Assembly: GCF_036588685.1 (NCBI RefSeq)
Contig: NC_086376.1
Coordinates: 45,074,001-45,138,000, forward strand
Direction of reading: 5' to 3'
DNA from: Mytilus trossulus
Lineage: Eukaryota
Length of the DNA stretch: 64,000 bases
In this document: positions 1,050 through 46,600 of the stretch, one piece after another
How the letters are laid out: the number at the start of each line of letters is the position of its first letter
How positions within the stretch are numbered: the first letter of the stretch is position 1
Program-made: the position numbers and the translations under genes
Notes under the pieces: generated by a model
Database searches by the model: none
What the model saw: only the letters and a program-made list of their open reading frames with translations
What the model was told of the DNA's origin: nothing

Positions 1050-1147
1050 GAACGGTCAACCAATTCGTAATGGCGTCCATAAAATTAACGAAGGGATGAA
1101 TTCAACTTCACCATTTGGAACTCTTGGTTTAATAGTTTCCTTGTGAG
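1050..1147 (-). mobile_element. Fragment of a Penelope-like retroelement-derived repeat; uninterrupted homologue of the site split at 33703/36815
   Basis: 'acggtcaaccaattcgtaatggcgtccataaaattaacgaagggatgaattcaac' aligns to 33669-33703 joined to 36820-36870. Confidence 0.55.
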
Positions 1148-19301: not shown

Positions 19302-22300
19302 ATGTCTCTCGTCGCATACTATACTTCTAGTGACAATGACAGTGAAGACGAGACGGATGTCAAACACCATAAAAACAGCACCAATGGCAATGGGGAATCT
19401 GTAGTACAAACAACAACAAATGTTTCCTTAGAAAAAACGACGAAATCTGAAAATGAAAGGCCACACAAGACCCAAGAGTTTCAAAGTTTGATACATGATG
19501 TTGATGATTCTGTTAATTCCCTCTTAAAAAGTATGTCCATGTGTCTACTTCATTATTTTTTTTTTCTCATAATTTCTTCAAATAATTCAGTGTTCTCCCA
19601 AGGCTGTTTTATCATCACGGTACCATGAAGCAAATTATGTATTTTTCCTGTGATGCAATAAATAATTCCGTTATGCTATAATTGTTTTGAGGATGGAATT
19701 TTTCCTTTCATGTTACTACAGTACTAAACATTTGTACATAATACATTTCCATAAAAGTTAAAACCAATGTTCATATTTTAAATTTTGATCTACATGTTTG
19801 TATACTGCTTGTGATCATAAAAATTGTATCGCCTAAAATCACATACCTTTAAGTCGGACTATAGAGGCAATTGCCCTTAGGGTGATATCTGTTACGATAT
19901 GATAAAAAAAATTACAGACTTGTATGCACTGATTGCAAACTTTGACAAAACTACAAGTCAAATAACCATGAAAATATGATTTTCCTTAATCCACAAAAAT
20001 TGGTATTCACATCAGTGAATGAACCCATACTATATTATGATTAATCGTACTTCCTTCTTTAACATTAACAGATTTACCTGCACCAAAAACAGTGACACAA
20101 TCTGATAGAAAACAAGATGATTATCTTGAAGATGCAGTCAAAGCAAAACCATCACAGATAGCAGATGCACCGAAACCTCCATCAAAAACTAGAAAGCCGG
20201 TGAAAATATCTATCCCTACCATTGATTCGGTAAGATTATTTCTTTATATTTCAATTTAAGTTTGGAATATGCATGATTGTAAAACTCTTAAAGGGAAGTC
20301 ACTTAGTGAGTTTGGCAGTTTTCTATGAAGAAATTTTTCAATCTGTAAATACATGAAATAGTGATGGATGATTTCAATTTTTTATAAAGTCAGAACAATT
20401 GGGTGTCATAATTTATATTTCTTTCTTTCAAGCGGACATTTACATGTGCATCCAACATGCATTTTGTCTTAACCAAGGGAGCATGTTAAAAATAGTCAGA
20501 TACATTAGATTAAGATATGTGATATTTATTATGAGTAAGCAACCAAACAATAAAAAAGAAGCATAAAGGCATCTACAGATCAACATATGCATGGTATGCA
20601 ACAATAGACATATGCCCATACGGGTAATCAAGCTCTAAATTACACAAACTTCTTACATAAAGTTTGATTTTTAGTCATATTGTATGGAATTTTCATGTTC
20701 AAATTCTTCTTTTTTGCCATTTACATTTGTACTTATTTATCAATTTTGTTTAAGGGCTCATATAGTAGACATTTGAATATGATTCTCATGAATTTGTCAG
20801 GTGTTTATTAATTAAGTGTGCTAAAATCAGCAAAAAGATACATGTATGTATTTTTTAATTTTCAGGATTCAGATGATGAAAAGGAACCAAGAAAAAAGAA
20901 ACAGAAAATAGGTCCTCAGACAGTAGGTTATTGATTTACTATGAAAGAGAGGTCGTGTCAAGGGGACGACAGTAACCAAACTATGCAAACATGAAATCAA
21001 TAGACTTTGTCTGGCTGAGGGAGACAAATTCTGTTTGAATGTAGAAAAAGTACCAATTTAACTTTTTGCATTACAAAAAAATTTCATTAAAAGAATACTG
21101 TGACATAACTATTCAAATCATAAATGTTCATTTGGTAACTATTTTTATATATATATATACATCTTTAAAAAAAAACTTTACTAAGAAAATGTTCATTCAC
21201 GGTAAACATATTTGCAGATGATAATCTCATTTGCTGTGGAGAAGGATTTCATGACTTGACGACATTTTTACATACCATGAAAAGCAGTTAAGTTTAAGGA
21301 TTACAATCTCTTATCACTACAGTTTTCAATTGAGGTAATCAATAAATGTTGATGAAGTTCATTTTAGTTTTGTCAAATGCTGGTTGGGGCATGTGTTACC
21401 AACTTTTTATGTGTTTTTACACATGTATAAGAGATCCAACAGTAAATTTTAATAACCTTGTTAAATTTATATTGATTTGGTGATATCTATTTAATCACAT
21501 AATTAATATCATTACAGGGCAAAACAGGATTGACAGCAAGCTTACCTCCTCCTATTCATTCTTCAAGAAAAGAATCTGGTAGAACATTATTACCCTATGT
21601 ATTCACGAAGAAGAAACAAACAGACTCTAAGCCAGTGAAAAACAGTACTAACAACAGTGTGAAATCATCGACTGTTTCTAAACCTGATACTACATCATCT
21701 AAGACTTTAAATATTGCCACGTATGGTAGTGAAAGTGATGATAGTGGAAATGAAGATGACTCATCAAATTTCTTTTCTCTAGGTTCAGTTGAACAGACAG
21801 TTAAACCTGCTGAATCATCAAATTTTTTCTCATTAGATACTCAAATTCAGCCCATAAGATCTGGTGTGCAACCAACTATGCATTCAACTTTACCTAAAGT
21901 AAATTTAAATCTTCCTCCTCCAATTAAATCTGTTGAAACAAAAGTGACAATAGAGACTAACCAATCAGATCTATCGACACAACATACAAGTTTGAAGAGA
22001 GGTATTACTGGGAATGATTCCTCTATTGGGGAAAGTTCTAAAAATCAAGACAAGCCATCAAATATGAGCTCTACCATGGAAAATGCACCATTGTCTTTTA
22101 AATCTACAATGAAAAGACCTTATAGAAATTTTCAAAGTTTTCATACTCCAGAAAGTTCTTACCAACCAGGAAATTATGAAACAGACACAGTAGGTCCTAC
22201 TATCTGTGAACAGAACGCTGAGGTAATGGTTTATTTTGGTCAGAGTTATTTTCATGTTGGGCAAGTACATTTTAATTTCATAGTGCTTCAGATGAATGGG

Positions 22301-25009
22301 GAAACAGATTTAATAAATTTGACCCAGTAGAGTTCATTTGACTTTGGTGAGGAAGTTGCGTCTCTTTTTTGCTTTGCTTTGTCTGCCTGCCAAAAACTAC
22401 AATCGATTCATTCTGGAGTTGTAACAGTCCCTTTCTTTATCAATAATTTTATATTTTTGGTTAGGATGATGTAACTTCAATCTTTCATTTATAAGTAAAG
22501 AAATTAAAAGACAGAACCAATTTATATTCTTGTTCATCGAAACAAAGTAAAAGCATTGAACCTGGCTGTAGACTGATTGTATTTTATTTGAAGGAAAACA
22601 ATGTTTTATGTAAACACATCACCAGGTAGTTTATTTTCACTCTTTTTTTCTGTTTTAATTACATGTACCTTTACTCAGGGTTGGAAAATGTCCATTGAGA
22701 AAATTATAGATCTTGAAAGTTTTGTTGGAATCTCCTCTCATATATATTTAAGTGCTTTTACAAACAATTTTTAAACATCAATGCTGATGATTTCATTAGT
22801 AAAGTTGAATACCAAAAATCTCTTGGTAACGAGATGAAATAAATGTATAAGACCTTTACATAAAAAAGAAAGATGGACGTCCTTCACAAGAGAAAGGGTA
22901 ACATCACATCTCTTACTGTGTTTATTTTAGCATTACCTGCATGTATATGAAAGAAAGATGATTGCCACTAGATATTACCATGTGCTGTATCTTTTTATTT
23001 TAGGTTGAAGGCTATTCTAATGTAGATGACATCAATGTATTACAGCAAGATGAAGAGGTATGTATTTTCAAATTGAGGCTATAAAAGAAATTTGCAACCT
23101 TCCCATTTTATGCTTATATTTACTGGTAAAACTGAAACTTATGTTAAATTTAATTGCAAAGACTAGAACAAAATTAATATCTGATAATTAAAGCCTGTGT
23201 TTTAATTTTTGTCACACTTGTGTAAGTCAAATTTGGTTAAAAGAAGGAATTGCTTTTCTTTTATATCTACTATATATACATGTAATTTACATTTTTGTAC
23301 TACAAATTAATATGAATGAAATTAATTGAATATAATCAAATTTTGAAATTATTATGTAAAACTTAATGAATTGGAGAATATCACAATAATGCATCATCAA
23401 TTGTTCAAGATTCCTTTGAAACTTTTCACTAAAAAAAAACTTACAATAAAAAATACTTGAATGATTTGAACATTTTAAGTTGACTTGAAAAACAAGTTTT
23501 TTAGTGAAAAAAAACAGTGAATTGAAATTGAATTATAATTTATAAGGTTTTATTATGATAAATCAATTGAATACAAATATTCTCAACTTAGTAAAAAAGT
23601 AGTATTTAAGGAGAAAACATTTGTACAGTAAAAAGCAGTGATCATATGTTGATTGTTTGTTTTTTGTTATTTTGTAGTTTCTTAGGTTACAAGGTAAACA
23701 CTCACGAGGTAAAGAACCTATACAATTTGTAGATGTCAATGCTGATGATTTTATTAGTACAGCTGCATACCAAATAGCCCTGACTGAAGAGACAGAATAC
23801 AGACCTTCTCATAAAAAGGGAGAGGGACCTTCTTCACAACAGAAAAAAAAACATCACATCACTTATCTAGCTCACCAGGTAAAGTATCATTATTTTTAAA
23901 CATTTGACATTACTATTGAAGAACAAAATATCAGGAAAGTTAATACATGTACAGATAATAGATTTTTTTCAAATTACCAACTTTTGACCCTGAAGTATGT
24001 AAATTTTTGTCAGGCTACCTTCTATTTGGTGGTATATTCTGGTTCTTTGTCAAGTAAGAGCAACTAAATGAAGTAAAATCAAGCTTACAATCGGTGTAAT
24101 TTAAATGAAGCATAATTTTTATGCCCCACCTACGATAGTAGAGGGGCATTATGTTTTCTGGTCTGTGCGTCCGTCTGTCCGTCCTTCTTACCCTCTGTCC
24201 TTCCATCCATTCGTTCAGGTTTAAGTTTTAAGTCAAGTTAGTTTTTGATGAAGTTGAAGTCCAATCAACTTCATTCTTAGTATACATGTTCCCTATGATA
24301 TGATCTTTCTAATTTAATTGCCAAATTAGACTTTTAACTCAAATTCAGGGTCCACTGAACATAGAAAATGATAGTGCAAGTTTCAGGTTTAAGTTTTTGG
24401 TCAATGTAGTTTTTGATTTAGTTGAAGTCCAATTAACTTGAAACTGTGTACACATGTTCCTTAGGTTATGATCTTTCTAATTTAGAATTATATTTTTATC
24501 CCAATTTCACGGTCCACTAAACAGAAAATGATAATGGGAGTGGGTATCCGTGTACTATTGACACATTCTTGTTTTGTTTACTACACATAAGAAAAACTAC
24601 TGGCAAAAAGTTAATTTTTCCCCAAACTGTGTTTGTAGTCTAGAAAATAGACTTATTAAATAACCCAAGTGTATACTGATAAAAACTATCAATATCAACA
24701 AACTATCCTTTTTCACAAATATGTCAAGCTCTGAATTGTCTCAAGTCTAGAATACATGTAGTTGTGAATAAATCTTTCAGAGAACTATAAAGATTTCCAA
24801 GCAGTACAAAATTCACACGTTGACAAAATAATTAAAAATGCCTTCTTTTTCCATTATATTATATCAATTTGTATTTAGTGTGACAAAAATTCTTTAAAAA
24901 AATATATATATTTTAATTTCAGGCTAAAGAAAGAGAGATTGAGCTGAAAAATGCTTGGTCGCAGAATGCGATGTCCAAAAGACAAACACAAGCAAAATAT
25001 GGTTTCTAA
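19302..25009 (+). CDS. PRCC: Proline-rich protein PRCC homologue, ~496 aa, 7 exons
   Basis: Exons 19302-19530, 20072-20229, 20866-20922, 21518-22222, 23004-23057, 23678-23878 and 24923-25009 are all GT-AG and in phase. N-terminus MSLVAY..SSD; C-terminus FLRLQGK...KKHHITYLAHQAKEREIELKNAWSQNAMSKRQTQAKYGF. AATAAA at about 25108. Confidence 0.93.
22765..22914 (+). pseudogene. Degenerate duplicate of PRCC exon 6 within intron 4
   Basis: 'tcaatgctgatgatttcattagta...ttcacaagagaaa...acatcacatctctta' aligns to about 23722-23866, with in-frame stops and indels. Confidence 0.75.
24115..24573 (+). mobile_element. Helentron-associated non-autonomous (DINE-1/HINE-like) element
   Basis: T-rich start, 5' stem-loop atgcccc...ggggcat, (GTCC/GTCT)n microsatellite, two internal ~160-bp tandem units, 3' end gtgtactattgacacattcttgtt. 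Confidence 0.65.
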
Positions 25010-28000
25010 TAGTATGTGTAAATATAGAACAATTACAATACACGTGTGTCAGCTTAAATTATAAATGTGTACAAAGTGGAACATGTTGTACACATAAAGG
25101 ATGTAAAAATAAAAGTATGTGTCATTAAAAAAGATGTTCTGACAATTTATCTATACCCAGCCCTGTAGCAAAGACTAGGCCAGTGATGTTATGTTAACAT
25201 CCTGTCTTCCATTCTAATGTGCATGTGTCATTTGAACATGGTTTCTAGATTATCTCTTATTTCATTATCTAAATTTACTACTCTTAATTAACACTTCATT
25301 ATTTGCATTTCTAGATTATAGAGAAATTTATAAAACAAAAATCAATGAAAAACATTTGGATATTGTTTATTTTAAGCAATGAAATACATGTATTCATATT
25401 GTGGGGGAACATCCTTTGTGAAAAATGTAGAAAAAAAGAAACCCTGCATGAAGTTGTGGTCACATTAACTTAAAACTAAAGTACAAAATTATGATGAAAA
25501 CTTTTAAATATAAGGATTTGCAGAATTCTTGTATTTTATGGAAAAGATTAAAAAAAAAAAAACTAGAATGCCTTCAATTAAGTAATTCTTATAAACAACA
25601 ATAAATTATCAACTAACAACCTTACTCCATAACAAAGTTTGTCAAAAGCTACCCAATACAATAAAACTGTTTTAAGGAAACTAGCTTTTCAGGTAGATAT
25701 TTGCCCAATTAAGATTTTGCCAAAACAGTTGTTTGAAAAAAAAAGGAAAGGAAGGGCCAATCAGAAATGAAAGTTAAAAAAAGGACAACCATGGCAAAAA
25801 AAAAAAGTAAAAACACAAAAAGTCCACAAAACACACTATTGGTTGAGCATATCAAAATAAATTAAAAAATATGAGCGATGGGAACACCACCAAGAACTAA
25901 GGTAGGACTGATTTGTTTTTAAAGAGTAAGCATTTTAAACTCCACAAGTAGCACATGTCATGTTAACATTGGGTGATCAAATAAATAAGAGCACAAAGTT
26001 CTGAATTTGGACATATGTGACTGTTTACTTTGGTTAACCTCTGATAAATCATGTGAAATTTAAAAAAAAATAATAGTAAGGAACTACTCAACACAGGTCC
26101 ACTTTTAATTGACCAATTTCACACTTGTCTTTCCAGAGTTATGTTTCTTTATTAAATGGAAAATAGGAGAATCTTGTGTTGTTTTATCTAATTGGTTGCT
26201 TGTTGTTAAGAAACACTGTCTTAAGAGGATAACCTGGTTTCAAATCATGGAGAAAATAAACAAATGGTCCATTTCTAACAAGATTACTTTGTATAAAGGC
26301 TCATTTGAAATGTTTCTTTTTCATGGTTCAAAGAATGAAACCATTTAGTATTATTCTTTGATTTTTATTATTAGTAATGATTTAAGAAATTTCATTGGTA
26401 TTTAATCTTTGAGGGTAATTGAAGGAAAGTATGATTTATAAAATTTTTGTTTTGGCCTTTTAAATTCAGAAATAAGAAATATTGATTTTGAAAATCAGGA
26501 AGCAGTTTATTTTCATATAATGACTGCCAATACCAGGCTGTAAAATGTAAAATAACAAAAGTTAGAACTCATAGGAAAATTCAAAACAGAAAGTCCTAAT
26601 CAAATGGCAAAATCAAAAGTTCAGAAACATCAAACCGATGCATAACAACTGTTATATTCATGACTTGGAACAGACATTTTCTTATGTAGGAAATGACAGA
26701 TTGAACCTGGTTTTAAAGCTAGCTAAACTTATCCCTTCTATGACAGTCATATAAAATTCCTTTATATTGACAACAATGTGTGAACAAAACAAACAGACAT
26801 AATAAGTAAAAATGTTAAAACTAGGGGTACAGCAGTCAAAATTATGTTGTTATATTAATCACTATAGAAACAGACAAATATACCAACAATGTAAAAGAAA
26901 ACACATATCTACAAAGTACATTAGCAAAAACAAACGACAAGAACTCAAAATTGACCATAGCACAATAACACAATGGCAGGATGTACAGTACCCATCCTAG
27001 ACATAATAAAATTGAGAATGGCAATGGGGAATTTGTCAAAGAGACAATAACCTTGACCAAAGTACAGACAACAGCTGAAGGCCACCAATGGGTCTTTAAT
27101 GCAGCGACAAAATCCATCACGCATGGGTGGTCATCACCTGGCTCCTAAAAACAATGTTGTACTAAATCCAGTGGAATAGAAGTATATAATAAAAAATCCT
27201 GAGGGTATCTAGAATAAAGTTTGTGTTTTATTTTCTGTTTTGTCAAAAACATGGCCGCCATGGCTAAAATAGAACATGGGGGTAAAATGCAGTTTTTGGC
27301 TGAAGTATTTATAGCAAATCTGATATGAATTAAAAAAAAATCATAATTAGGTCAAGTTCTATCTGCCATGAAATTTTCAGATGAATCTATCAAGCCATTG
27401 TTGGGTTGCTGCCCCTAAATTAGTAATTTTAAGGAAATTTTGAAGTTTTTAGTTAATAAAAATTACTAATGTTAAAGATAAACTTTAACAGCAAAAATGT
27501 TCAGCAAAGTAGGATCTACAAATATGTTGATATGATCTAAATTGTCAATCCACCCCTTAAGGAGTTGCTGCCCTTTAAACAGATTTTTTTCTTAATTTGT
27601 TCATCTAGTTTGCTTGCTCTATAACTGCTGAATCAATTTCAGAATATCTAGTAAAAATTTTGTATTTCATTTCCTTGTACATCAAGAAACATAGCCACTT
27701 GGACTAAAATGGAACACGGGGTAAAATAAAATTGAGGATGGAAATGGGGAATGTGTTTAACATGAAACCCTATGGGAAAAAACAGGGAACTCTTTTTGTC
27801 AGAACACACTGTCAAACATTTACAAGTCATACTATCCACACTGATCTGTGTCCACACTTGTTAACATATAATATTGTTTTACAATGAATGTTATGTATAA
27901 CAGTATAAGCAAGGAGGTTGTATAATTTCCTTGGTATAGGCAAAGTTGGTCCAATTTAGTCCGACGGTTCAATAGTAAGTATGACAGTTCGATTGTCCGA

Positions 28001-28214
28001 CGGTTCGATAATCGACAGGATGACACATTAAAATAAAAGTCGAGGGTCATAAATATTTCCATATTCGGCCCTCTGTCACAGGGTGGTTATTCTGCCCTTT
28101 CAAACCATTTAAAAATTTCTTAGCTATTTCTCTTTTCATTCGCAAATTAACGGGCATGGTCGGAAGATAGATTCCTGGCTGCTGTACCGCATTAGCAATG
28201 ATTGAGGTGTTTAA

Positions 28215-29010
28215 ATATATTCAACGATATATGAAAGATGGCATATTTTGAATTAATATTGATTTACTAATAGTACCCTTGCATCGGAAATAAACACATC
28301 TATTCTAAATAAATCATTAAAGATGGCCTTTTTTTTATTATTAATTATATTGATTTACTAATAGGGACTTTTCTTCTAAACTAAGCACATTTATTCTAAT
28401 CATTAAAGATGGCATATTTTTGGAATTAATATTGGTTTACACATAGGGTCTTTGCATCGCGGGAAATCAACACATTTATTATAAAACCAGTTGTTGACAT
28501 GGCACGGTTTTGTGACAGTTCTCTCATATTTTATGATAGTATGATACTAAACCCCTAACATAAATGATTGTGCTCGATATGCACATGATGAAGACATAAT
28601 TTTTCAATCAGTGTAATTGAGGTGTGAGGCTTGCGTGTCAGTAACTGACGTAACAGCTAGTAAGCCTTTGTTAATGTATGTATCATTGTCACTTTGCTTA
28701 GTTTTTTTTGTTGCGTTTACTGGCATTGGACTCGGACTTCTTTTAATTAAACTGAGTTTTACTGTGCGTATTGCTGTGTGATAATAAATAAGCTTTATTT
28801 AGAGTCGGCAAGGTATACAAACATAGACAAAAATAAGCTCTAATTAGCTTTTAACAAACATGATTGTTTATCCTCATTGACTTGAAGTATAAAAGGGGGA
28901 CCGGGTTGAGATCTCACTAAACATGTTAAACCCCGCCGCATTTTTGTGCCTATCCCAAGTCCGGAGCCTCCTTCCTTTCAAGTGTTAGTCTTGTATGTGT
29001 GGGGTTTTTT
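28215..29010 (+). repeat. Abundant dispersed repeat with three ~85-bp tandem subunits at its start (duplicate at 31784-32579; related copy 52430-53175)
   Basis: Shares the 'aaaccagttgttg.catg...ggactcggacttctttt...gttgagatctc' sequence with 52430-52800. Confidence 0.7.
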
Positions 29011-29042
29011 TTTATTTACTCTGATTACGTTCTACTTCATAT

Positions 29043-29644
29043 GTACAATACAATACAATACAATATTTTATTAACGTCTCACCTTTTACAAAGCAATACA
29101 TAACACTTTGATTAAAACAAATTACACATATGTAAAAGCCATTCATATAGAATTATGAGAGACGATTATTTACAAATTCGAAACAAATTTCACACCGCTT
29201 AAAACATCAAATATATATATACTAAAAAAAATAATTTAAAAATATAAAAAAATTAAAAATTAAAAAACAAGCAAATACAAAACTATCTACATGTATATAA
29301 AAATCTACGTCTCCTATCTAAAATGTCTCTGCAGGTTTTGGCACACAAACGTATATTGTTAACACCACATAGAATCACAGATAGCTTATCTTGACTAGAA
29401 AAATTATCAAAACCATCAATATTTAAAGTATTAAAACAACTGTCCCTAATATCATCATACAGTGGGCAAAATAAAAGTACATGTTCTTCGTTTTCAATGG
29501 AGTCAGGACAGCAAAAGCAAGTTCGTTCTAGCAATCTTAGGTTCTCGTATCTCCCGGTCTCGACGCGAATTGGCGCTACTCCACACCTAAACTTAGCGTA
29601 AGCACTTCTGTACGATGTTGGCATGTAGTAGAACGTAATCAGAG
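29043..29644 (-). mobile_element. 3'-terminal LINE fragment with (ATTGT)n tail (duplicate at 32612-33213)
   Basis: ORF RSAYAKFRCGVAPIRVETGRY...CFCC...EEHVLLFCPLY is a LINE ORF2 C-terminal zinc-knuckle-like region. AATAAA and a short tandem tail follow at 29043-29072. Confidence 0.85.
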
Positions 29645-30134
29645 ATCAATATTTTAATTAGATTGGACCCCATAAAGTTAAATGGTTGCTCCCTTAAGTT
29701 AATTATATAATACGTGTCTTTGTCTTTCAATATTTTTTTTCTTTTGGGATTACCAAATAGAGGAGAAAGATACCAAAGGGATTGTCAAACTCTTAAGTCG
29801 AAAATAAACTTAAAACGCTAATTAAAAAAAAGACAAACCGACAAACAACAGCTAAAAAAACACAACATAGAAGACTAACGACTTAACAACACAAACCCAA
29901 CCAAACACTAGGGTTGCTACGGAAGGGTGACCAGGTCCTGTTCCGCACGTGGCACCCGTCGTGTTGCTCATGTTAGTACAAACTCTAATTGACTTAATAT
30001 AATTCAAATTCTGTATAAAAAAAGAAGAGACGATATTGATGTTAATATTACAATTAGAACATATTTGGCTGCTATCATCTTTGAAACGGATATTCTGTAA
30101 CGGTCAACCAACTCGTAATGGCATCCATACAATT

Positions 30135-30203
30135 CACGGTGGGTATGGTTGTCCTGCGAGAGAACGTACTGTGCTGGTGATTTGGTCCTGACGGGTGCTG
30201 GTG
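30135..30203 (+). repeat. Duplicated left TIR of the Transib-like element
   Basis: Identical to 33704-33772 and preceded by the same CAATT. Confidence 0.9.
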
Positions 30204-31409
30204 GGTCCTGATTCTGTGCTGGTGGGTTTGTTTACATTGTATCAGAACGGCAATAAAACGACTGTTTTGTTGCTTAATTGTTCTCTGATGTGTCATAAGT
30301 ACCATGCAAAGTATATTACAATAATATTATATTGTAAAAGTCGTGCAAGTTCGTTAAACGGAATTGTCCTGACGCTGTGCTGGTGATAAGAAAAAAGGTC
30401 CTGGTTCTGTGCTCCTATGTCCTGGTTCTGTGCTTTTATATTTAGTTAAAAGTGACATATATTCAAGATCATTGATGCTGTACTGTTATTGACTTATTAG
30501 CTGTTGTCTGCTTTCTTGAAATTGACATTGTTGTGAATCTGTTTACTGTTATTATGAGAGAAAAAATACCCCTATTTTTATTTTATTTTTTAAAACTAAC
30601 TTTAATCTTATTTATTGGCCTGTTAATGGGACCCTTCTTGCCCCCTTTTAAGATAAGAAAATATGTTTACGATTTTCGGGATTACTATCATTTTGCAAGA
30701 TCACCAAAATACGTGGTAATTTATACAATACTTATATAAAGTAGATGATGTGGTATGTTTGTTGTCAATGGACAAATCTCCATAAGAAACCAAAGGAAGT
30801 ATGTGTGAACAACCATACGTCATCGTACGACCTTCAACAATAACCCATAAAATAAAAATGGAAAGCAAAAATATAGAACAAAGGACTTTCTGAGCGTCTT
30901 TAGCAGCTTAAAACACATTTGTTTGTGAACAATTGAGTGCTGACTATAAGAATGACAATAGTATTGCAGGTTTGTTTGTTTTGTGGGTTGTTTTTTTTTT
31001 TGGAAAAGGGGGGGGGGGGTAAGTTATAGCGAAATTACAGTGAAAGCTTGGAATAGTTTCCCGTAAGATTTAAAAGTTGTATTGTAAAAGAAAAATGTAT
31101 CTTATAGCTATTAAGAATCACTTGCTGTAAGAATTTTCCAACACATTTTTTTGTTGTCTAAACGGTTATCAGGTATTTTTTTTTTCGAAAGTTCGATAGA
31201 ACACTAAAAAAAACACTATTTCATGAAAGGGCAGGCTAGAATATGTCAGAGAATGAAGACGAGATAACCTAGAGAACACTAATAAAATTAAGATTTCTTA
31301 GCTTTTTTCATTTCAAAATAATTTTTTTTTGATTAAGAATTACGGGGGAGGAAGTGAACAATGTGTCCTTCTTTTCTATATATAAATATTTTTCATGAAT
31401 AAAAATAAA

Positions 31410-34400
31410 CTGATCTGTGTCCACACTTGTTAACATATAATATTGTTTTACAATGAATGTTATGTATAACAGTATAAGCAAGGAGGTTGTATAATTTCCT
31501 TGGTATAGGCAAAGTTGGTCCAATTTAGTCCGACGGTTCAATAGTAAGTATGACAGTTCGATTGTCCGACGGTTCGATAATCGACAGGATGACACATTAA
31601 AATAAAAGTCGAGGGTCATAAATATTTCCATATTCGGCCCTCTGTCACAGGGTGGTTATTCTGCCCTTTCAAACCATTTAAAAATTTCTTAGCTATTTCT
31701 CTTTTCATTCGCAAATTAACGGGCATGGTCGGAAGATAGATTCCTGGCTGCTGTACCGCATTAGCAATGATTGAGGTGTTTAAATATATTCAACGATATA
31801 TGAAAGATGGCATATTTTGAATTAATATTGATTTACTAATAGTACCCTTGCATCGGAAATAAACACATCTATTCTAAATAAATCATTAAAGATGGCCTTT
31901 TTTTTATTATTAATTATATTGATTTACTAATAGGGACTTTTCTTCTAAACTAAGCACATTTATTCTAATCATTAAAGATGGCATATTTTTGGAATTAATA
32001 TTGGTTTACACATAGGGTCTTTGCATCGCGGGAAATCAACACATTTATTATAAAACCAGTTGTTGACATGGCACGGTTTTGTGACAGTTCTCTCATATTT
32101 TATGATAGTATGATACTAAACCCCTAACATAAATGATTGTGCTCGATATGCACATGATGAAGACATAATTTTTCAATCAGTGTAATTGAGGTGTGAGGCT
32201 TGCGTGTCAGTAACTGACGTAACAGCTAGTAAGCCTTTGTTAATGTATGTATCATTGTCACTTTGCTTAGTTTTTTTTGTTGCGTTTACTGGCATTGGAC
32301 TCGGACTTCTTTTAATTAAACTGAGTTTTACTGTGCGTATTGCTGTGTGATAATAAATAAGCTTTATTTAGAGTCGGCAAGGTATACAAACATAGACAAA
32401 AATAAGCTCTAATTAGCTTTTAACAAACATGATTGTTTATCCTCATTGACTTGAAGTATAAAAGGGGGACCGGGTTGAGATCTCACTAAACATGTTAAAC
32501 CCCGCCGCATTTTTGTGCCTATCCCAAGTCCGGAGCCTCCTTCCTTTCAAGTGTTAGTCTTGTATGTGTGGGGTTTTTTTTTATTTACTCTGATTACGTT
32601 CTACTTCATATGTACAATACAATACAATACAATATTTTATTAACGTCTCACCTTTTACAAAGCAATACATAACACTTTGATTAAAACAAATTACACATAT
32701 GTAAAAGCCATTCATATAGAATTATGAGAGACGATTATTTACAAATTCGAAACAAATTTCACACCGCTTAAAACATCAAATATATATATACTAAAAAAAA
32801 TAATTTAAAAATATAAAAAAATTAAAAATTAAAAAACAAGCAAATACAAAACTATCTACATGTATATAAAAATCTACGTCTCCTATCTAAAATGTCTCTG
32901 CAGGTTTTGGCACACAAACGTATATTGTTAACACCACATAGAATCACAGATAGCTTATCTTGACTAGAAAAATTATCAAAACCATCAATATTTAAAGTAT
33001 TAAAACAACTGTCCCTAATATCATCATACAGTGGGCAAAATAAAAGTACATGTTCTTCGTTTTCAATGGAGTCAGGACAGCAAAAGCAAGTTCGTTCTAG
33101 CAATCTTAGGTTCTCGTATCTCCCGGTCTCGACGCGAATTGGCGCTACTCCACACCTAAACTTAGCGTAAGCACTTCTGTACGATGTTGGCATGTAGTAG
33201 AACGTAATCAGAGATCAATATTTTAATTAGATTGGACCCCATAAAGTTAAATGGTTGCTCCCTTAAGTTAATTATATAATACGTGTCTTTGTCTTTCAAT
33301 ATTTTTTTTCTTTTGGGATTACCAAATAGAGGAGAAAGATACCAAAGGGATTGTCAAACTCTTAAGTCGAAAATAAACTTAAAACGCTAATTAAAAAAAA
33401 GACAAACCGACAAACAACAGCTAAAAAAACACAACATAGAAGACTAACGACTTAACAACACAAACCCAACCAAACACTAGGGTTGCTACGGAAGGGTGAC
33501 CAGGTCCTGTTCCGCACGTGGCACCCGTCGTGTTGCTCATGTTAGTACAAACTCTAATTGACTTAATATAATTCAAATTCTGTATAAAAAAAGAAGAGAC
33601 GATATTGATGTTAATATTACAATTAGAACATATTTGGCTGCTATCATCTTTGAAACGGATATTCTGTAACGGTCAACCAACTCGTAATGGCATCCATACA
33701 ATTCACGGTGGGTATGGTTGTCCTGCGAGAGAACGTACTGTGCTGGTGATTTGGTCCTGACGGGTGCTGGTGGGTCCTGATTCTGTGCTGGTGGGTTTGT
33801 TTACATTGTATCAGAACGGCAATAAAACGACTGTTTTGTTGCTTAATTGTTCTCTGATGTGTCATAAGTACCATGCAAAGTATATTACAATAATATTATA
33901 TTGTAAAAGTCGTGCAAGTTCGTTAAACGGAATTGTCCTGACGCTGTGCTGGTGATAAGAAAAAAGGTCCTGGTTCTGTGCTCCTATGTCCTGGTTCTGT
34001 GCTTTTATATTTAGTTAAAAGTGACATATATTCAAGATCATTGATGCTGTACTGTTATTGACTTATTAGCTGTTGTCTGCTTTCTTGAAATTGACATTGT
34101 TGTGAATCTGTTTACTGTTATTATGAGAGAAAAAATACCCCTATTTTTATTTTATTTTTTAAAACTAACTTTAATCTTATTTATTGGCCTGTTAATGGGA
34201 CCCTTCTTGCCCCCTTTTAAGATAAGAAAATATGTTTACGATTTTCGGGATTACTATCATTTTGCAAGATCACCAAAATACGTGGTAATTTATACAATAC
34301 TTATATAAAGTAGATGATGTGGTATGTTTGTTGTCAATGGACAAATCTCCATAAGAAACCAAAGGAAGTATGTGTGAACAACCATACGTCATCGTACGAC

Positions 34401-34980
34401 CTTCAACAATAACCCATAAAATAAAAATGGAAAGCAAAAATATAGAACAAAGGACTTTCTGAGCGTCTTTAGCAGCTTAAAACACATTTGTTTGTGAACA
34501 ATTGAGTGCTGACTATAAGAATGACAATAGTATTGCAGGTTTGTTTGTTTTGTGGGTTGTTTTTTTTTTTGGAAAAGGGGGGGGGGGGGGTAAGTTATAG
34601 CGAAATTACAGTGAAAGCTTGGAATAGTTTCCCGTAAGATTTAAAAGTTGTATTGTAAAAGAAAAATGTATCTTATAGCTATTAAGAATCACTTGCTGTA
34701 AGAATTTTCCAACACATTTTTTTGTTGTCTAAACGGTTATCAGGTATTTTTTTTTTCGAAAGTTCGATAGAACACTAAAAAAAACACTATTTCATGAAAG
34801 GGCAGGCTAGAATATGTCAGAGAATGAAGACGAGATAACCTAGAGAACACTAATAAAATTAAGATTTCTTAGCTTTTTTCATTTCAAAATAATTTTTTTT
34901 TGATTAAGAATTACGGGGGAGGAAGTGAACAATGTGTCCTTCTTTTCTATATATAAATATTTTTCATGAATAAAAATAAA
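31410..34980. repeat. Tandem segmental duplication, unit 2 (3571 bp)
   Basis: Matches unit 1. The only difference I found is a poly-G run (12 vs 14 G). Confidence 0.95.
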
Positions 34981-36814
34981 ATGTGCCTTGATTATAATTG
35001 AAAATGAGTAAATGGAAAAAATACCCAACTAAAATACACTTTTATTTTAATATTGGTAATATCACTAAGTAAAAGTTTTGTGTGTCAAACACACCATCTC
35101 TGTAGTAATGACTCCTTACTAAGATGTTTCACTTCATTCATTTTTTTTCTGCATTTTTTTATATTTTGAATTTATAGAATTATTATATTAAAATGTAGCC
35201 TTAATTTATATTTAAAAAAAAACAGAATCTAAAGCCAGATATATCAAACATTTGTGTTTCCATCTATCCGTTTTCAGGACTTTAACAATCAACAATAACA
35301 CGCCTGGAAAGTAAAATGCGTACTCGGCTGTCTGTAATCGACCATTTTTAGACACCCCAGGCTCCTAAAAAAACAAGCCGGGTGGGGGTTCAAAGATGCA
35401 AATTAAGTACTTATATCAATATTTTATCTTTTCGTGTACGGTTTATGACCCCTCCTGTGGCCTGTCAATTCCGAAATGTGCAAACTGCAATAGTATCAAA
35501 ACAGCACAGACAATGAATAATAGAGATATAATTTTGTACATATATCAAGGGGAAACTTCTTGCAAAGCATTATTATTTATAGTTCATTATTGTATTTAGT
35601 AGAAAAAGAGAATTAAGTGGAAAAAAAATCACTATTTTTGTAGAAAATTTCCAGACCTTTGTACAGAGATTTTTGTTATGTTTAGCATGGGATCAACACA
35701 ATGGTTTATTACCGACGGTAAAAAAAATCAAAATGTCTATCTACCTTGCACATTTCAGAAAATTCAGATCAGATAACGGAACTGGTTCCAGCAACATTTA
35801 TAAGCAATTTAAGATTGTGACCCTCACAGTTTCCATTCACCACAAATATTCTCGTTACAACGAATCATTTTCAATACAAAAAAATACGTGTTGCATGCAG
35901 CCTTTTGTTTATCTATTAATATATGTATACGGATAAAGTTAAGTAAGGCAGCAGGGTCATCAGGGTGAGGAGTCCATGTCATCTGAAATAAATGCTAAGT
36001 ATAGATCTAGAAAGCGAAATATAATCATGACATTAAAAAAGTCTCTTCTTTTCGACTTTTTTCGAACAAATTGACACATAAAATGAATTATATAGTATTG
36101 TGGAATTTTTAACTTATTTTAGAACCGGGCTGAAGTACGTATTTTAGATACTATATATAAATTGTTATCTGATATTGAACGAAAGATGTTGCCCTTTTAT
36201 GTTATTATGTAATACAAGTTAAGATAATTTGAAAACACATATTAAACAGCCAAATGGATGCACAAGAGCTAAAATAGGAGTCATAGATCCTGTTGGCAAC
36301 AATTATCTGGCTAATTTTATTGATTTTGTAACATTTGTTTCAAATATGACCAACTTCTTATCCAAAATCACCAGCACCGTATCAGGACCCACCAGCACAA
36401 TGACAGGACCCACCAGCACAGTATCAGGACATGAATAAATTGAGAAAATGCTAAATTTTGATAAATTGCAATGTTTTTTCACAAAATTGTTTTATCGTGT
36501 GGATTGCGGTATAGAAAGCGGACTCTATGAGCATTTTTGTTTTATTTTTTCAGTTCGAGATTTTCTGAAAATGAGCATTTTTGTGTTACGCTTACTGAAA
36601 CAGTTTAGAGGGTCATTTTTTAAATGGTTTATATATGAACCCCTAAGAAACGAAATGGAAAAATCTCAACTGTTTTCTTCCATTTTTTATGAGTGAAAAC
36701 GTCAAAAATCATCATTTTCGTCTTTGTTTACATTTTTTCATTGATCACCAGCACCCGTCAGGACCAAATCACCAGCACAGTACGTTCTCTCGCAGGACAA
36801 CCATACCCACCGTG
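33704..36814. mobile_element. Non-autonomous DNA transposon (3111 bp) with 69-bp perfect TIRs and 5-bp TSD; Transib/RAG-like
   Basis: TIRs at 33704-33772 and 36746-36814 begin CACGGTGGG. TSD CAATT at 33699-33703 and 36815-36819. Subterminal GTCCTG-N4/5-GTGCTGGTG repeats occur at both ends. No long ORF. Confidence 0.85.
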
Positions 36815-37030
36815 CAATTTACGAAGGGATGATTTCAACGTCACCACTTTGAACTCTTGGTTCAATTGCTTTTGTGAGCAGCAACCCTCTACCAAGGATA
36901 AAGAATAAAGATATATAATGAAATCGTGTTAGGAAACGCAAGCCCTGATATATCGTATCAACTGGGATAAAGATATAATTGCTCCTTATGCATGCGCTGC
37001 TGGAATACAAATAATTAAAATGCAAGGATA
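36815..37030 (-). mobile_element. Penelope-like retroelement relic (continues at about 33480-33703 across the transposon)
   Basis: Frameshifted remnants resemble the PAAPAYGVYISQLIRY...LLT.KLL.QG region of Penelope-like ORFs. Nucleotide match to 1050-1147. Confidence 0.55.
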
Positions 37031-37619
37031 AATGAAATCAAGAACACCATCATGTATAGAATTTTTGTAAAGGAATCCGAGCTAGTGGAGCACATGAAAT
37101 CCATATCTTTTTTTTCTAATTGAATATTTTTGCACATTTGTTAATCTCGGAATAATATTAACAGTCTGCACCAAAAACTTTTTCAACTACTAGTCCCAAG
37201 ACCAATATTCCAACATTTTTCTTATTGGTCAAAACAAAACAAAAATGACTGTAATGTCCTTTGTATTGCTCGAAATGTGTAAAAGAAAGTTTTGACCAAC
37301 ACGAGAGTGGTATATGTGTTACTTTATTTGTTTTGCTGTAAAGCTTCAAGTAGAAAATTAACACCTTTGCGAATACTTAGTTGTTAACTTTCATGACATA
37401 TGGCTTCTGGTGGAGTGTTGTTTCATTGGCAACCTTCTCATTCTTATATTTATATGAAAGTAATGTTACACACAATTACAGAAATTTTGACAATTTGATT
37501 TTGGTGGAATGATAATTTGCCGACAATATTTTAAAATGAATATATAAGAATTATGCTGATTACTGGAATATGTTAATTTAAATAGCTTTCATTGAAACAA
37601 AAAAATGATTTAAGTCATA

Positions 37620-38815: not shown

Positions 38816-40544
38816 ATGATAATTAAAACAGTATTGAGAATTTTATTTTTCACAATTCCATTGGTAAGTATATTTTAACGTATTTTGCACATATATATGC
38901 CAACGCACCAATTATTGTTAATTTTAAAGTTTTGCGATTTTCTAGAATTAAGAAAGTTAAAACGCTTATCTGTAGAATATTATTGTTTATTTAAACAAAC
39001 TTGGTTCTTATTAGATATATTTTGTATATTCCTGTCAAGCAAACATTTTGACCTTGAACATGTCTTCAATCGGCTTTATAAACTAATAATGACTACAGTA
39101 CTGATACAGCCTGCAACTTCTAATTGTATCTTGAGCTCCATTGTATTAAAACAATGCAAGTGCTGCTCATTTGAAATGTATTATTTCTCGTTTTAATTGT
39201 TTTACATTGTCTTATCGGGGCCTTTTATAGCTGACTATGCGGTATGGGATTTGCTCATTGTTGAAGGCCGTACGGTGACCTTTAGTTGTCAATGTTTGTG
39301 TCATTTTGGTCTTGTGTGGATAGTTGTCTCATTGGCAATCATACCACATCTTCTTTTTTATATTATAATTGTACGCTAGTGCTTTGTGTAATTGTATAGC
39401 ATGTACATCAAGGAAAATAATACCATATAATTGTTTTGCGTCTGACGCACTTTTCTTGATTAAGCTCGAATTGGAAAGCTGAAACACAAAACAAACTGGA
39501 AACCAATGGCCGGTTTATAATAAAACATAGCCTCCTTTCACGTTGAGACTGAAATCAAGCGAATGAAATACATTATGTATTAGGTGTTGTGTAGCTCTTG
39601 CATTATCAGAAACATTAGTATGAATAATGTCCCACAAAGAACTGTTCAGTGTAAGAAAATAACACACTTATGATCAATTATGTTCAAACTCCAAATATTT
39701 GTATAAAGTTGGTTATTTTCTTAATAATTGAATAAATATATTTCAAATTTCACAAAAAACTTACACAGATATATCGGGACATATTTTAAGACCGTTATAC
39801 ATATCACATTAAAAGTGCTTTAAATTTGTAGCTTGTGATTGTAAAAGAAATCAAGGAAAATTGACCGTGCTCATGGCTCAAATCAGATTTTAGTTTTTAT
39901 TTAAATCTTTTTTTGTAAAAGATCAAAATTTTCGAACTCTTAAAGGTTCAAGAATAAGTGAACCATCTTATGTTGACTGTTTTTTTTTTATTCTTCACTA
40001 TAATGACCTGAAAACTAAGAATGTTCAATAAACATTTTTGTAACGGTTATTGTGTTCGACCAAAATGTAATTAAGTTTTGTCTAATCAGATATAGACTTC
40101 ACCCTCCCTTCCACCTTACACCGACCTTCTTCCGTCTTTTTTCCCGAATATCTCAATGATAAACAAACAAGATAATTAATCTTATGGTTATCATGAGATA
40201 AAACACTAAATTTACCCATGATCATGTTTGTTATTGCTTTTATTCTTTAACAGGGACAAAATGCACAAACTACTTCATTCAAGGAAGTATTCACGGAGTT
40301 TGCTCTTGTTTTTATCCAACAAATTAAAGCAAATTCCCCTCAAGATTTTCATTTTCTCTTATATGATTTGAATCTTTCAATTGATTTGAAAAAACAACTT
40401 TGACTTGATTTCTAAAAACTGAAATCTGAAATACATGACCATTTATTTTACAAAGACTTAATTTAAACTATAATTGTTCAGACAGAATTGAAGAATGTTT
40501 ATAACAGGTGCTCAAAATTTCTTTGTGTTAAGATATCATAAACG

Positions 40545-40612
<68 letters not shown>

Positions 40613-43600
40613 ATGCTTAATATGGTTTTTTTTCTTTTTCTTTTCATTAATTTTAGATATGATTTAATTGTTTTGAAATGAATACAAATGTTCTCACTTA
40701 TTTTTATCGTCGTCTGTTATTTGTGTACGTAGTGGATTTTTTTCTTATATCTTTTGCTACGCGTTATCAGAGTCTTTGAAATGCATAAATTTCGTTTTTT
40801 TCTTTAGCTCAAATAAAAACTGAAAACAACATTTTATAAAAAGCCATTCGAATTCGTCTGATGCGCTTTTCTGAATTTAGTTCCAGCAGAACGCTCAAAG
40901 CCGGACAAGCCAATGGTGTATCATTTGAAGAGCATTATGACCAAAAATGACTAATCAGTGAAAATTCCCTTTGTAAAAGCATGGAATTGTAGTATGACTA
41001 CCAATGAGACAACGATCTACATAAATTAAAATGAAGTGGTTGTAAGCAATTATAGGTAACCGTACATGCATACACACGGAATGTAAAATGCATTTTTCTT
41101 GATTTTCAGTTAATAATAATAAGAAGGGACAGGCAATTACGTAAGATATACAGAACAACAAAAAATTAGGATTAAAATTCCTACAAAATTAAATGACGAG
41201 AAAAAAATACCCAAAATGTAAGCCTTGATATTGCGACGCCCATTATCTTATATATCTTATGTATGTCAGTCGATTTATCTGTATTTATTTTCGGATAAAC
41301 TTCTTTTTCAGTTACTCAAAACTTCATAAATATAGAGATTAATTAGGTATAAAGTAAGTAAATAAAGTCGACTGTCTGTAAAAGGAATTCAAAGTAAGCA
41401 GGTTTAATTTGCGTCCGAATGGGATATGTGTAATAAATGACTGTGCTATTACTAAATAGAATGATTGAAGACTTAAAATGCACTTTACGGTTTTATAGTA
41501 AGTCTTTAAAGACGTCTTCATAGCATAATTACAAACAGATAAGATATGATGGTAAACTTATTACTCTTAGCTGCAAATTATTTTATCAACGCAAAGCATT
41601 GACATGTCATCCTTTTTGCTAAAAGTTGTAGCTTCAATTGAAGTTGAGATTTTTTTATTTTTTTATACCCTTCTATAGAAAACCTCTACAATCAAGTCTT
41701 TTTTTTTTCTTTTTCTTTCTTCAAAAAATAGCAATGTGATTTTTTTAAATAAAGCAACACTTAAAAATAATCATATCGCCTTCTTACAAAATCCACGTCA
41801 TGTGGACTCTAGCTAGGGTATGGATAGTTGTCTAATCGCCCTCTTAAAAAATATACGTCATTTAAACTATAGCTAGGGTATGGATGATTTTCTAATCGCT
41901 CTCTTTCAAAATCCACTTCATTTGGACATAGTTAGGATATGGATAGCTGTTTAATCGCCATATGACATAAATTCATGTCATTTAGAATGTAGCGACGATA
42001 TGGATAGTTATCTACGTGCCCTCTAACCAAATCTGTGTCATTTGAAATATAGCTATGATATGGATAGTTGTCTAAACGCCCTCTTACAAAATCCATGTCA
42101 TTTGGACTTTAGCTAGGATATAGATAGCTGTTTAATCGCCGTCTAACAAAATCTGCGTCATTTGGACTCGAAGTATGATATATATAGTTGTTTACTTGCC
42201 CTCTAACAAAATCCGCGTCATTTGGACTGTAGCTATGATATGGATAGTTTTCTATACGCCCTCTTACAAAACCACGTCACTTGGTCTTTAGCTAGGATAT
42301 GGATAGCTGTCGCCGTCTAACAAAATTCATGTCATTTAGATTCTAGCGAGGATATGGATAATTGTCTACTTGCCCTCTAACAAAATCCGCGTCATTTTGA
42401 CTCTAGCGAGGGTATGGATAGTTGTCTAATCGCCCTTTAACAAAACCCACGTCATTTGGACTCTAGCTAGGGAATGGATAGTTGTCTAACACCCTCTAAC
42501 AAAATTCACGTCATTTTGGACTCTAGCTAGGGAATGGATAGTTGTCTTACACCCTCTTACAAAATTCACGTCATTTGGACTCTAGCTAGGGAATGGATAG
42601 TTGTCTAACACCCTCTTACAAAATCCACGTCATTTGGACTCTAGCTAGGGTATGGAAAGTTTTCTAATCGCCCTCTCACACAAAATCCACGTCATTTGGA
42701 CTCTAGCTCTAGGGTGTAGATTGTTGCCTTAACAACATATAACAAAACCCACGTCATTTGAAACTCTGGCTAAGGTATGGATGGTTTGCAATTTTCCTCT
42801 AACAAAATCAACTTCATTTGGACACTAGCTAGGGTATGGATTGTTGTCTAATCGCTCTCTCACAAAATCCACGTCTTTTGGAATCTAGCTAGGATATGGA
42901 TGGTTGTCTAATCTTCCTCTAACAAAATCCAAATCATTTGGACTCTAGCTAGGATATGGATGGTTGTTTAATATTCGTCTAACCAAATCTTCGTCATTTG
43001 GACTCTAGCTAGGGTATGAATTGTTGTCTAACCACCCTCTAACAGAATTCACGTCATTTGGACTATAGCGCATGGATAGTTGTCTTAACACCCTCTTACA
43101 AAATCCACGTCATTTGGACTCTAGCTAGGGAATGGATAGTTGTCTAATCGCCCTCTAACAAAATCCACGTCATTTGGACTCTAGCTAGGGTATGGATAAT
43201 AGTCTAATCGCCCTCTAACAAAATCCTCGTCATTTTGGATTCTAGCTAGGGTATGGATAGCTGTTTAATCACCCTCTAACAAAAGTCATGTCATTTGGAC
43301 TATAGCGCATTGATAGTGGTCTAATCGCCCTCTCCCAAATTCACGTCATTTGGACTCTAGCTAGGGTATGGATAGTTGTCTAATCGCCCTCTAACAAAAT
43401 TCACGTCATTTGGACTCTAGCTATGGTATGGATAGTTGTCTAATCGCCCTCTAACAAAATTCACGTCATTTGGACTCTAGCCAGGGTATGGATATTTGTC
43501 TAATCGCCCTCTAACAAAATCTACGTCATTTGGACTCTAGCTAGGTTATGGATAGTGGTCTAATCGCCCTCTAACAAAATGCACGTCATTTGAACCCGAG

Positions 43601-46600
43601 CTAGGGTATGGATAATAGTCTAATCGCCCTCTCACAAAATTTCACGTCATTTGGACTATGGCGCATATATTGTTGTTTTATTGACAATAGTAACACCATC
43701 ATCAATCTTCTTATGTCATACTGTAATATCAAGACAACACAAACAAACATACACGCAATGGTAAATAAAATGCCATACATATAATCAAACACAGCCTACC
43801 CCCCTATGATGAACTCGCAACCCGTTTCTTTTCAAGATTAGTACAAGTATATGAAGTCTTTATTAATTTCACATACTTCGTATTTAGATATAGATATGAT
43901 TTGTACCAGAGACATATGTAATGTCCCTATACTATACCATGCCTCTGTTTGTACTAACAAGAAACAAAAGCTTCTGTTTCTATTTAGCAACGGTATCTAT
44001 AAATTTTACTTCAATGACAATGACACAATTTTATAACTACTGAATAAATGATTAATTGCAATGTATTGTTTCAAAATGTTATGTTGCTACACTTTTAGTC
44101 TTTATAAAGATCCATGTTCTGAACATAAACAAAAACTAAATTTTCATTTTCGATCACCTTTTCATCAAACTTTTTTCATTTTAGTTATACAAAACAATAT
44201 ATGAAGGTTTTTTTGCCGTTCAGACTCTTTTGAAATTTGAATTGCTTTATTGTTTGAATAATTATGTATGTTACAGTTCTGGAATGACGATAAAAAAAAT
44301 ATCAGAAATGCCCACTTTTGTTTTGAAATTAATAAGCTGTAAAATAAACAACTCTTGCATAAGTTTTGTTTCTATTGAGTAGTTCCAAATCAAAACAAGT
44401 ACTTTTTTTCGCGTTGTTTGTTGGTTCGAGGTGTATATTCACTTAAGACACTAATTTTCATCTAAACAATGGCCTTCAATTCAAACATTTTCATATCAAT
44501 ATTTTCAATTTGTTCTCGGATTTGAAAATATTACTAGATGATAACTATTCTAAACATACAGAAAATGTAAATATTAACGTGGGTGTTTTTGGTGGTTGTA
44601 TTGTATCACATTGATATCACCAGGGAGGGATGAATATAGGTTAGCACTTTGGTTTAAGATCGAATGTACAAGAGGTCGGACAGCTATTATAACGAAAAAA
44701 GGGACTGGCAAGTATAGGAACATTTGCACATTTGCAAGAATATATTGCACCGACTGTGAATATATATCATGCATCTTCATACTTTTCGTGGTATTTAATA
44801 TAAAATGACGAGTCTTTTGTAGACGAAACGCGCATCTGGAGTGAAAACAATACTAAAATTTCAATCCTGGAAACTATGATGAATTTATTTACAGGTACTG
44901 AGTCGATGCCACTGCTGATGAGGTTTTTATTCCCCGAGGATATCACCAACCCAGTAGTCGACACTTCTGTGTTCACATTAACTAACATTGATATGGTCAT
45001 ATTTATAAATCAACTGTTTACAAAATTTGGATTTTTGAAATGCTAATGATTTTCTACAACAGTTGTAGATTATCTTAGCTGTGAAAACTTTTGGCAAAAC
45101 TTTAAGAACATTTGGTCCTCAATGCTCTCCATTTCGTACTATGTTTGGCCATTTTAACCTTTTTTTATTAGAGCGTCACTGATGAGTCTTTTGTAGTCGA
45201 AACCCTCATCTAGAGTAAATGCAAAATGTCAATCCTAGTATTTATGATGAGTTTACTCAGTTGTCCAGTCATGTTACAGAGCTGATAATTTGGACAGACA
45301 TTAAAAACGTTGGCCAAACGAGGGCCAAACATTGCTTCATTTTTTTATAATCTGAATAATAATGGGATTAGTTTTAGGTTTGATAAATAAAAATCATCTC
45401 TAACTAAAAGCTCACCAGAAGTGATCTTCGTCTGTATATAAGCCTAATAATCTGCGCTCGTACCAAAACAGTTGGAATTTCTAAACTTAAACAAGTTTTA
45501 CGGTTGAAAAGAAAGAAATTAAAAAATAATCATTTATGCATTGGGAAAACCTTAGTGATAACTAATTTTAACATTTTGTGCGCAGATTATTTATAACAAA
45601 TGACCTCATCCCAGCTCTTGAAGTGTTTACTACTGTGCCGCTGCGCTGGTGTTTCCATTTGGGACGGTTACTTTACCAGCAGTTTCACCAACCGTTTACT
45701 CAAGGAAAAAATCACTAAAATGATAATTGTCATACTAGTAACCAAAACATAGCTACTCTGAAAAAGAAGCATTTTTTTTTCTCTAAATTTCATTTTTTAT
45801 AATGTTCAATCAAGTTCTAATTGTCCCTTTTTGCATACACTTGACATGTACATATATAACTGACAAGTCAATGAAAATGTACAATGATTATCTAAACTGA
45901 AGGGTCGTCCAAGTAGAGTTGAAGCATACTGATTACCCGAACAACGAGTACATGTCAGTGTTATTTAAACTTTCCTTTCGTTTCATCTTTAGATAACCAT
46001 ACACATGATCTGATAAAATTGTTTAATAATAAGAATAAATATATGAGACATTTTTAATTTAGATCTTTTGAATTATTCTTTCACACGATAATTAATTTAA
46101 ATATAACGTTACAGACATTGACTCATTTCTTTCTCCCTCTTCCTTTTACGAGAAGATTAACAAGGAAATTAAAACAGGATGATGTCTTCTACATTAATTT
46201 TGTACGTTTAAAATCAAACAAAACATTACAAACATACTGCACTTGATAAACTGGTGACAAAATAGAACTCATCAATGTTTGGAATTTCTCCTTGAGACAC
46301 TATATTGAATATTAGTCGACAAGAAACGTTTCAGATTTATTATCAATAATGTAAATAAATTATTATATATCTTTATTTGCAAAACATACAAAAAACAAAT
46401 TTGGTTGTGGCAAATACATTGACAAACAAACATAATGAAACATAATGAAAACTCGACAATATTATAAGAAATATGATAAAAACAGTTACTGTTCTCCTTT
46501 CCTCTGTTCTAATGACTCTTTAAGGTAGCACAATACAAAGATTTTATAACTCCAACTCCCACGTTTTAAAATGTTGTAACTTTCTTAATAATGCTTGCAA

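Follow-up and report, generated by a model that had tools for sequence, protein, structure and literature searches.

Introduction

The transposases of the CMCT clade (CACTA-Mirage-Chapaev-Transib) are DDE enzymes with C(2)C and H(3-4)H motifs. Transposons of the clade carry CA..TG ends and duplicate 2–5 bp of target DNA (PMC12730594). A target-site duplication (TSD) of 5 bp is the mark of Transib and RAG-like (RAGL) transposons, the CMC groups having TSDs of 2–4 bp (PMC1131882; bioRxiv 10.64898/2026.08.26.747230; PMC4079192; PMC3014272). In molluscs, Transib-superfamily remnants are known from the oyster (PMC4411706). Here we describe an element in the mussel Mytilus trossulus, in a stretch of 64,000 nucleotides (assembly GCF_036588685.1, contig NC_086376.1, positions 45,074,001 to 45,138,000, forward strand) that we call the window and to which all coordinates refer. 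The element occupies 33704–36814. It is, we think on balance, a gene-less, multi-copy, CAC-ended member of the CMCT clade, mobilised in trans by a transposase that is probably of the Transib type. A first-pass annotation made from the letters of the window had labelled it Transib/RAG-like. Judged by its bases the tip is Transib-like; the RAG-like half of the label is unsupported.

Structure of the element and its target site

The transposon is 3111 bp long. Its two terminal inverted repeats (TIRs) are identical over exactly 69 bp, after which the match ends abruptly (table 1). The pentamer CAATT stands directly outside both ends, and 5 bp is the sole flank length that matches among k=2–11, k=3 and k=4 included among the failures; across the 64-kb window a random 5-bp flank match arises for about 0.2% of position pairs. 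Is the duplication then truly 5 bp long? The insertion target is a dispersed repeat, split into 33668–33703 and 36815–36878, of which the window holds an unbroken paralogue. Once the element and a single CAATT are taken out, the joined flanks match 1051–1147 at 84 of 97 positions, with an ungapped insertion point. The paralogue thus has a single 5-mer, and the length of the TSD is independently fixed at the window site. The perfect 69-bp TIRs, the CAATT duplication and the uninterrupted homologue with one 5-mer had each been proposed in the first-pass annotation, and all of them stand.

The TIRs are 58% GC and begin with the tip CACGGTGGG, so that the element ends in CAC...GTG, as do members of the CMCT clade and, within it, Chapaev/Chapaev3. 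The resemblance of CACGGTG to the heptamer of the recombination signal sequence, from which it differs at one base, had also been pointed out; it adds little beyond the CAC start common to the whole clade. The tip of HzTransib appears to be CACGGTG as well. A nonamer, on the other hand, is missing, as had been claimed: with any spacer from 8 to 29, no stretch agrees with ACAAAAACC at more than 4 of 9 bases. Folding of the left 97 nt is no more stable than that of shuffled sequence.

What the ends do contain is a repeated motif of 20 bp. The pattern GTCCTG-N4/5-GTGCT occurs nine times in the element and, its duplicated part aside (see below), nowhere else in the window; among 500 shuffles it never exceeded one occurrence per shuffle, with a mean of 0.002. 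Measured from the left end, GTCCTG lies at offsets 17, 51, 71, 232, 264 and 285; from the right end the offsets are 17, 51, 385, 406 and 427. The subterminal clusters are asymmetric, and they lie where the first reading of the letters had put them.

Table 1. Window coordinates of the element, its target site and the associated duplication.
Feature	Position	Strand	Remarks
Left TSD	33699..33703	+	CAATT
Left TIR	33704..33772	+	69 bp; GTCCTG at TIR positions 17 and 51, GTGCTGGTG at 37 and 61
Motif copy adjoining left TIR	33774..33793	+	20 bp
Left subterminal cluster	33935..34007	+	copies at 33935–33954, 33967–33986 and 33988–34007; latter two degenerate
Non-coding interior	34008..36368		GC about 30%; six frames without a Pfam family
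Decayed piece of dispersed host repeat inside element	34293..34410	-	72% to 39257–39373
Right subterminal cluster	36369..36430	-	three inverted copies, 21-bp spacing
Right TIR	36746..36814	-	69 bp; same as left
Right TSD	36815..36819	+	CAATT
Dispersed repeat split by element	33668..36878	+
Paralogous empty site	1051..1147	+	repeat unbroken, one 5-mer
Truncated second left end	30135..31408	+	first 1.27 kb, CAATT before it; product of tandem duplication
Head-to-tail duplication	27840..34979	+	two units

Other members of the family

An exact 20-mer scan with the TIR returned one metagenome contig, L001 (3224 bp), and nothing from viral contigs or GTDB genomes. This contig holds a full copy of 3102 bp, with TIRs identical at 68 of 69 positions and flanks of 31 and 91 bp. 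Alignment with the window copy over 3050 bases shows 79 differences (2.6%) and, in addition, 20 indels. Parts of the element are also matched by seven open reading frame (ORF) calls on other contigs (P0004, P0005, P0018–P0022), and such calls change frame from copy to copy. P0019 follows the right end as far as the TIR tip and then passes into a third, unrelated flank, which confirms the right boundary at a third site. P0018 has the appearance of an internal deletion derivative; P0020, with 59% amino-acid identity, is an old copy. On this comparison the family is multi-copy, with young and old members.

How recent, then, is the insertion in the window? The identity of its TIRs had been taken to suggest recent mobilisation. 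Given the divergence that separates the two full copies, TIRs identical over 69 bp should occur in 16–43% of cases, and copies as old as P0020 exist; the argument from identity is weak.

Two further searches gave only matches that we treat as chance. None of 51 GTDB loci from a degenerate motif scan aligns to the element, and one viral 17-mer match has no support past 18 bp. Of the 24 sequencing-run rows listed, 20 share 0.31–0.65 of the 31-mers of 33000–37500; two of these 20 bear the label ‘mollusc metagenome’, and the others fall under seven coded organism labels; L001 alone covers 0.35 of these 31-mers, the flanks of the element make up 0.31 of that query, and we have not used the rows as evidence.

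The seven ORF calls stand in public protein collections as spurious entries in which stop codons are read as Q or W, and L001 is an animal transposon filed as a stand-alone 3.2-kb contig in a metagenome collection. A ‘bacterial’ element, CthTransib, has been reported on a 4563-bp contig from the assembly of an uncultured bacterium (PMC9435367). That this contig too is host carry-over is speculation on our part.

Coding content

Does the element encode anything? Its longest open frame, of 117 amino acids (aa), has a length that 9.6% of 500 shuffles reach, and it is broken in L001. None of the 84 candidates for this frame among longer proteins is a match, and the best atlas value is 0.79. For a cysteine-containing ORF of 76 aa, two of five candidates match; both are ORF calls on other copies of the element, and both matches run through stops and switch frame. 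The same ORF has no Pfam family and no atlas match. When one of the six frames was compared by phmmer with 1.84 billion proteins, the five matches (64–217 aa, none longer than 217 aa, no Pfam family above cut-off) proved to be pieces of the same non-coding element; the remaining five frames were covered by Pfam, together with the word-index search for the 76-aa ORF. Pfam on the six read-through frames yielded no family above cut-off, the one sub-threshold entry being Utp12 (E 0.054), and no remnant of RAG1 or RAG2. The single Rfam match (E 0.61) we take as chance. With its TIRs and TSD and no coding remnant, the element is what had been proposed, a non-autonomous cut-and-paste transposon.

Which transposase moves the element?

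If the element carries no gene, what kind of enzyme is likely to mobilise it? Transib termini start with 5'-CAC in a CACAATG-like heptamer, and the tip here resembles them: eight of its nine positions agree with CACAGTGGG, the tip sequence found in TransibN3_AG and Transib-N1_SP, and it shares CAC-N-N-TGG with all seven Transib termini in Fig. S4 of PMC1131882. Four of the five positions of CAATT fit CAWTG, the target reported for Transib-N2_AG, and four fit CARTG, that of Nozomi. Little or no similarity to the nonamer has been reported for the TIRs of HzTransib (PMC4840297). Together with the 5-bp TSD, these features lead us to favour a Transib-type transposase, and the ends likely work like a Transib end; we do not file the element as a member of Transib.

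Several observations weigh against this choice. No transposase was found, which leaves the ends as the whole basis of the family link. Subterminal repeat arrays commonly mark the ends of CACTA and hAT elements. The target is AT-rich, with a GC content of 37% over a 35-bp site and 33% over a 15-bp site against 32.5% for the window, whereas Transib targets are GC-rich; these figures describe one site. The flanks of L001 share 3 bp (AAA); lengths of 4 and 5 bp give no match. Positions 34–35 of the TIR are A and C, in place of the conserved AA of Transib (PMC1131882). Under the Repbase rule of equal TSD length and at most one mismatch over terminal positions 1–11 (PMC4455052), none of the seven published termini compared, out of many Transib families, passes, the best having two mismatches. 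Both TIRs and TSDs are reported to be labile within Transib, with TSDs of 2, 3 and 5 bp, and a warning has been given against letting the ends outweigh homology of the transposase (bioRxiv 10.64898/2026.08.26.747230). Molluscs have few intact Transib ORFs: 1 was reported among 14,275 DDE/D elements (PMC10294476).

How would a Transib-type enzyme act on these ends? The transposase, RAG1-core-like and the product of a single gene elsewhere, would be supplied in trans and would pair the two tips. By analogy with HzTransib, cutting by nick and hairpin would leave blunt transposon ends (PMC6941560, PMC4840297, PMC1852546), and strand transfer at positions staggered by 5 bp, followed by repair, would yield CAATT on both sides. 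Their anatomy suggests that the 20-bp GTCCTG-N4/5-GTGCTGGTG motifs could serve the transposase as additional binding sites that stand in for a nonamer. Relative to the nearer end their orientation is the same on both sides, and their unequal placing may distinguish left from right.

Taken one step further, these traits might define, in molluscs, a so far undescribed branch of RAG1-fold transposases, with a Transib-type tip, a 5-bp stagger, unequal arrays of a 20-bp motif instead of a nonamer or TR2, AT-rich targets and perhaps duplications of 3–5 bp. We hold this to be rather unlikely.

A real, if minority, possibility is that the mover belongs elsewhere in the CMCT clade, to Chapaev, EnSpm/CACTA or an unnamed branch whose TSDs are 5 bp, or vary from 3 to 5 bp, and whose enzyme binds subterminal repeats. 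The arrays of the element are CACTA-like, its nonamer is absent, its target is AT-rich, and Chapaev-3 elements are present in bivalve libraries. CAC tips occur throughout the clade, with TSDs of 2–5 bp (PMC12730594). The clean 5-bp TSD at the window site, backed by the empty paralogue, argues against such a mover. The TSDs of EnSpm/CACTA are 2–4 bp. Those of Chapaev are 3–4 bp and those of Chapaev3 are TWA between A and T (PMC4079192, PMC3014272), unlike the AAA of L001.

L001, with its 3-bp flank match, speaks for this possibility. A 3-bp flank match arises by chance in about 2% of cases, somewhat more often in A-rich flanks. One flank of L001 is a piece of a repeat that also occurs in the window (36 of 43 positions at 17966–18008); the other, of 31 bp, is unlike the upstream part of that repeat in the two window paralogues examined. 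A true 3-bp TSD would require the target repeat to have been cut off at the insertion point. Instead, the two flanks probably come from different insertions and the contig is chimeric, because a whole element with flanks of 31 and 91 bp is typical of a collapsed multi-copy repeat in a short-read assembly. A 5-bp TSD is thus seen in one of two copies. The first-pass annotation had named TSDs other than 5 bp in further copies as grounds for its own refutation: the window site speaks for 5 bp and L001, probably chimeric, is ambiguous.

Could the element instead derive from a RAGL transposon encoding RAG1L and RAG2L, as found in oysters, mussels and ribbon worms? Bivalves do have RAGL elements and non-autonomous forms of them, with CAC tips and 5-bp TSDs (PMC7204232). 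However, only 7 of 17 positions fit the protostome RAGL consensus, whose conserved AAA at positions 8–10 is GGT here (PMC7204232). An adenine block beside the heptamer is typical of RAGL (PMC10629977, PMC8355894), and RAGL TSDs are reported to be GC-rich (PMC10629977). The end motifs do not appear as termini in the supplements of PMC7204232 and PMC9435367, nor in the portion searched of the supplement of PMC10294476. We regard this origin as improbable. Of the first-pass label, therefore, the Transib part is carried by the CAC tip, the 5-bp TSD and the likeness of the tip to published termini; the RAG-like part lacks support, because the adenine-rich block beside the heptamer is absent and nothing is coding.

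We give very little weight to a group outside the CMCT clade that also makes 5-bp TSDs, such as hAT5: the third base is G in all 22 hAT termini of Fig. S7 of PMC1131882, a set that excludes hAT5 termini, and C here. We give practically no credence to the idea of an assembly artefact or a structure that arose by chance; the left end does lie within a near-perfect tandem duplication that is itself possibly artefactual, but for the element itself this reading is refuted by L001, an independent contig carrying the whole element with both TIRs, by the empty paralogue, which fixes the boundaries, and by P0019, which fixes the right end.

Tandem duplication and neighbourhood

The first-pass annotation overlooked a head-to-tail duplication of 3.57 kb at the left end, with units at 27840–31408 and 31409–34979 whose sole difference is a 2-base indel in a G run. 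It copies the left 1.27 kb of the element together with 2.3 kb of left flank, and the units join at about 1 base of microhomology. Did the transposase make it? This is unlikely, since one breakpoint lies inside the element and not at its tip. The duplication may be real or an artefact of assembly. As it stands, 30135–36814 is a possible composite unit of 6.68 kb, with TIRs and TSD, that holds 2.3 kb of host DNA.

The last exon of a multi-exon PRCC gene (19302–25006, plus strand; matched by P0003, PF10253) ends about 8.7 kb before the element, which sits among retroelement fragments. The dispersed repeats appear similar to those of mussels. A decayed second copy of one PRCC exon is found near 22768–22925. 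A rearranged Bel/Pao retroelement at 5579–11554 contains an open frame of 1591 aa (6278–11053) that begins mid-gag; 5627–6286 is a perfect inverted copy of 10895–11554, 5579–5625 directly repeats 11199–11245, and no TSD of 4–7 bp flanks the whole. On the minus strand, 13971–17790 carries broken frames of a LINE-type reverse transcriptase (RVT_1, E 5e-23, in 16711–17790). A tandem array of roughly 60-bp units, about 80% alike, extends over 41766–43681. Finally, a 351-aa open frame at 53064–54119 (plus strand), Thr/Ser-rich and with a hydrophobic end, resembles an exon of a mucin-type membrane protein; it has no Pfam match.

Comparison with known systems

As it stands, the element adds one more non-autonomous CAC-ended family. 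Literature searches on Transib in Mytilus and other bivalves listed no description of it, and three 14-base end motifs were not found in the literature searched, a scope outside which lie Repbase, Dfam and Table S2 of termini in the preprint, any of which may hold a match. The 69-bp TIR and the 20-bp motif offer bait for the autonomous partner in a mollusc assembly. If it turns out to be RAG1-like, one could test directly on the motif arrays how such enzymes bind ends that lack a nonamer. Should the new-branch reading be true, it would add a third way for RAG1-fold enzymes to recognise their ends and tell them apart, with a bearing on the origin of the 12/23 asymmetry.

How does the element compare with its nearest described relatives? 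Chapaev/Chapaev3 and EnSpm-CACTA also end in CAC...GTG, but their TSDs are 2–4 bp (TWA in Chapaev3; PMC4079192, PMC3014272, PMC12730594), whereas the TSD of the window site, which is well supported, is 5 bp. The protostome RAGL transposons (PMC7204232) and ProtoRAG likewise start with CAC, make 5-bp TSDs, live in molluscs and have non-autonomous forms; the AAA/TR2 block beside their heptamer is missing here, and the element contains no RAG1L or RAG2L sequence. HzTransib of Helicoverpa zea (3518 bp; PMC1852546, PMC4840297, PMC6941560) is similar in size and shares the 5-bp TSD, long TIRs and the scant or missing resemblance to a nonamer; unlike the mussel element, it carries the gene for its transposase, and its TSDs show a slight GC enrichment. 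The non-autonomous Transib elements TransibN3_AG, Transib-N1_SP, TransibN2_AG and Hopper/Kodama have in common with ours the CAC-N-N-TGG(G) tip, the 5-bp TSD, the lack of coding sequence and a CAWTG-like 5-mer target (PMC1131882; bioRxiv 10.64898/2026.08.26.747230). The mussel element differs from them in lacking an A-rich, nonamer-like block at positions 30–38, in the length of its TIRs (69 bp against about 38) and in its size (3.1 kb against about 0.5–2 kb), and it has in addition nine copies of a 20-bp subterminal motif and an AT-rich site.

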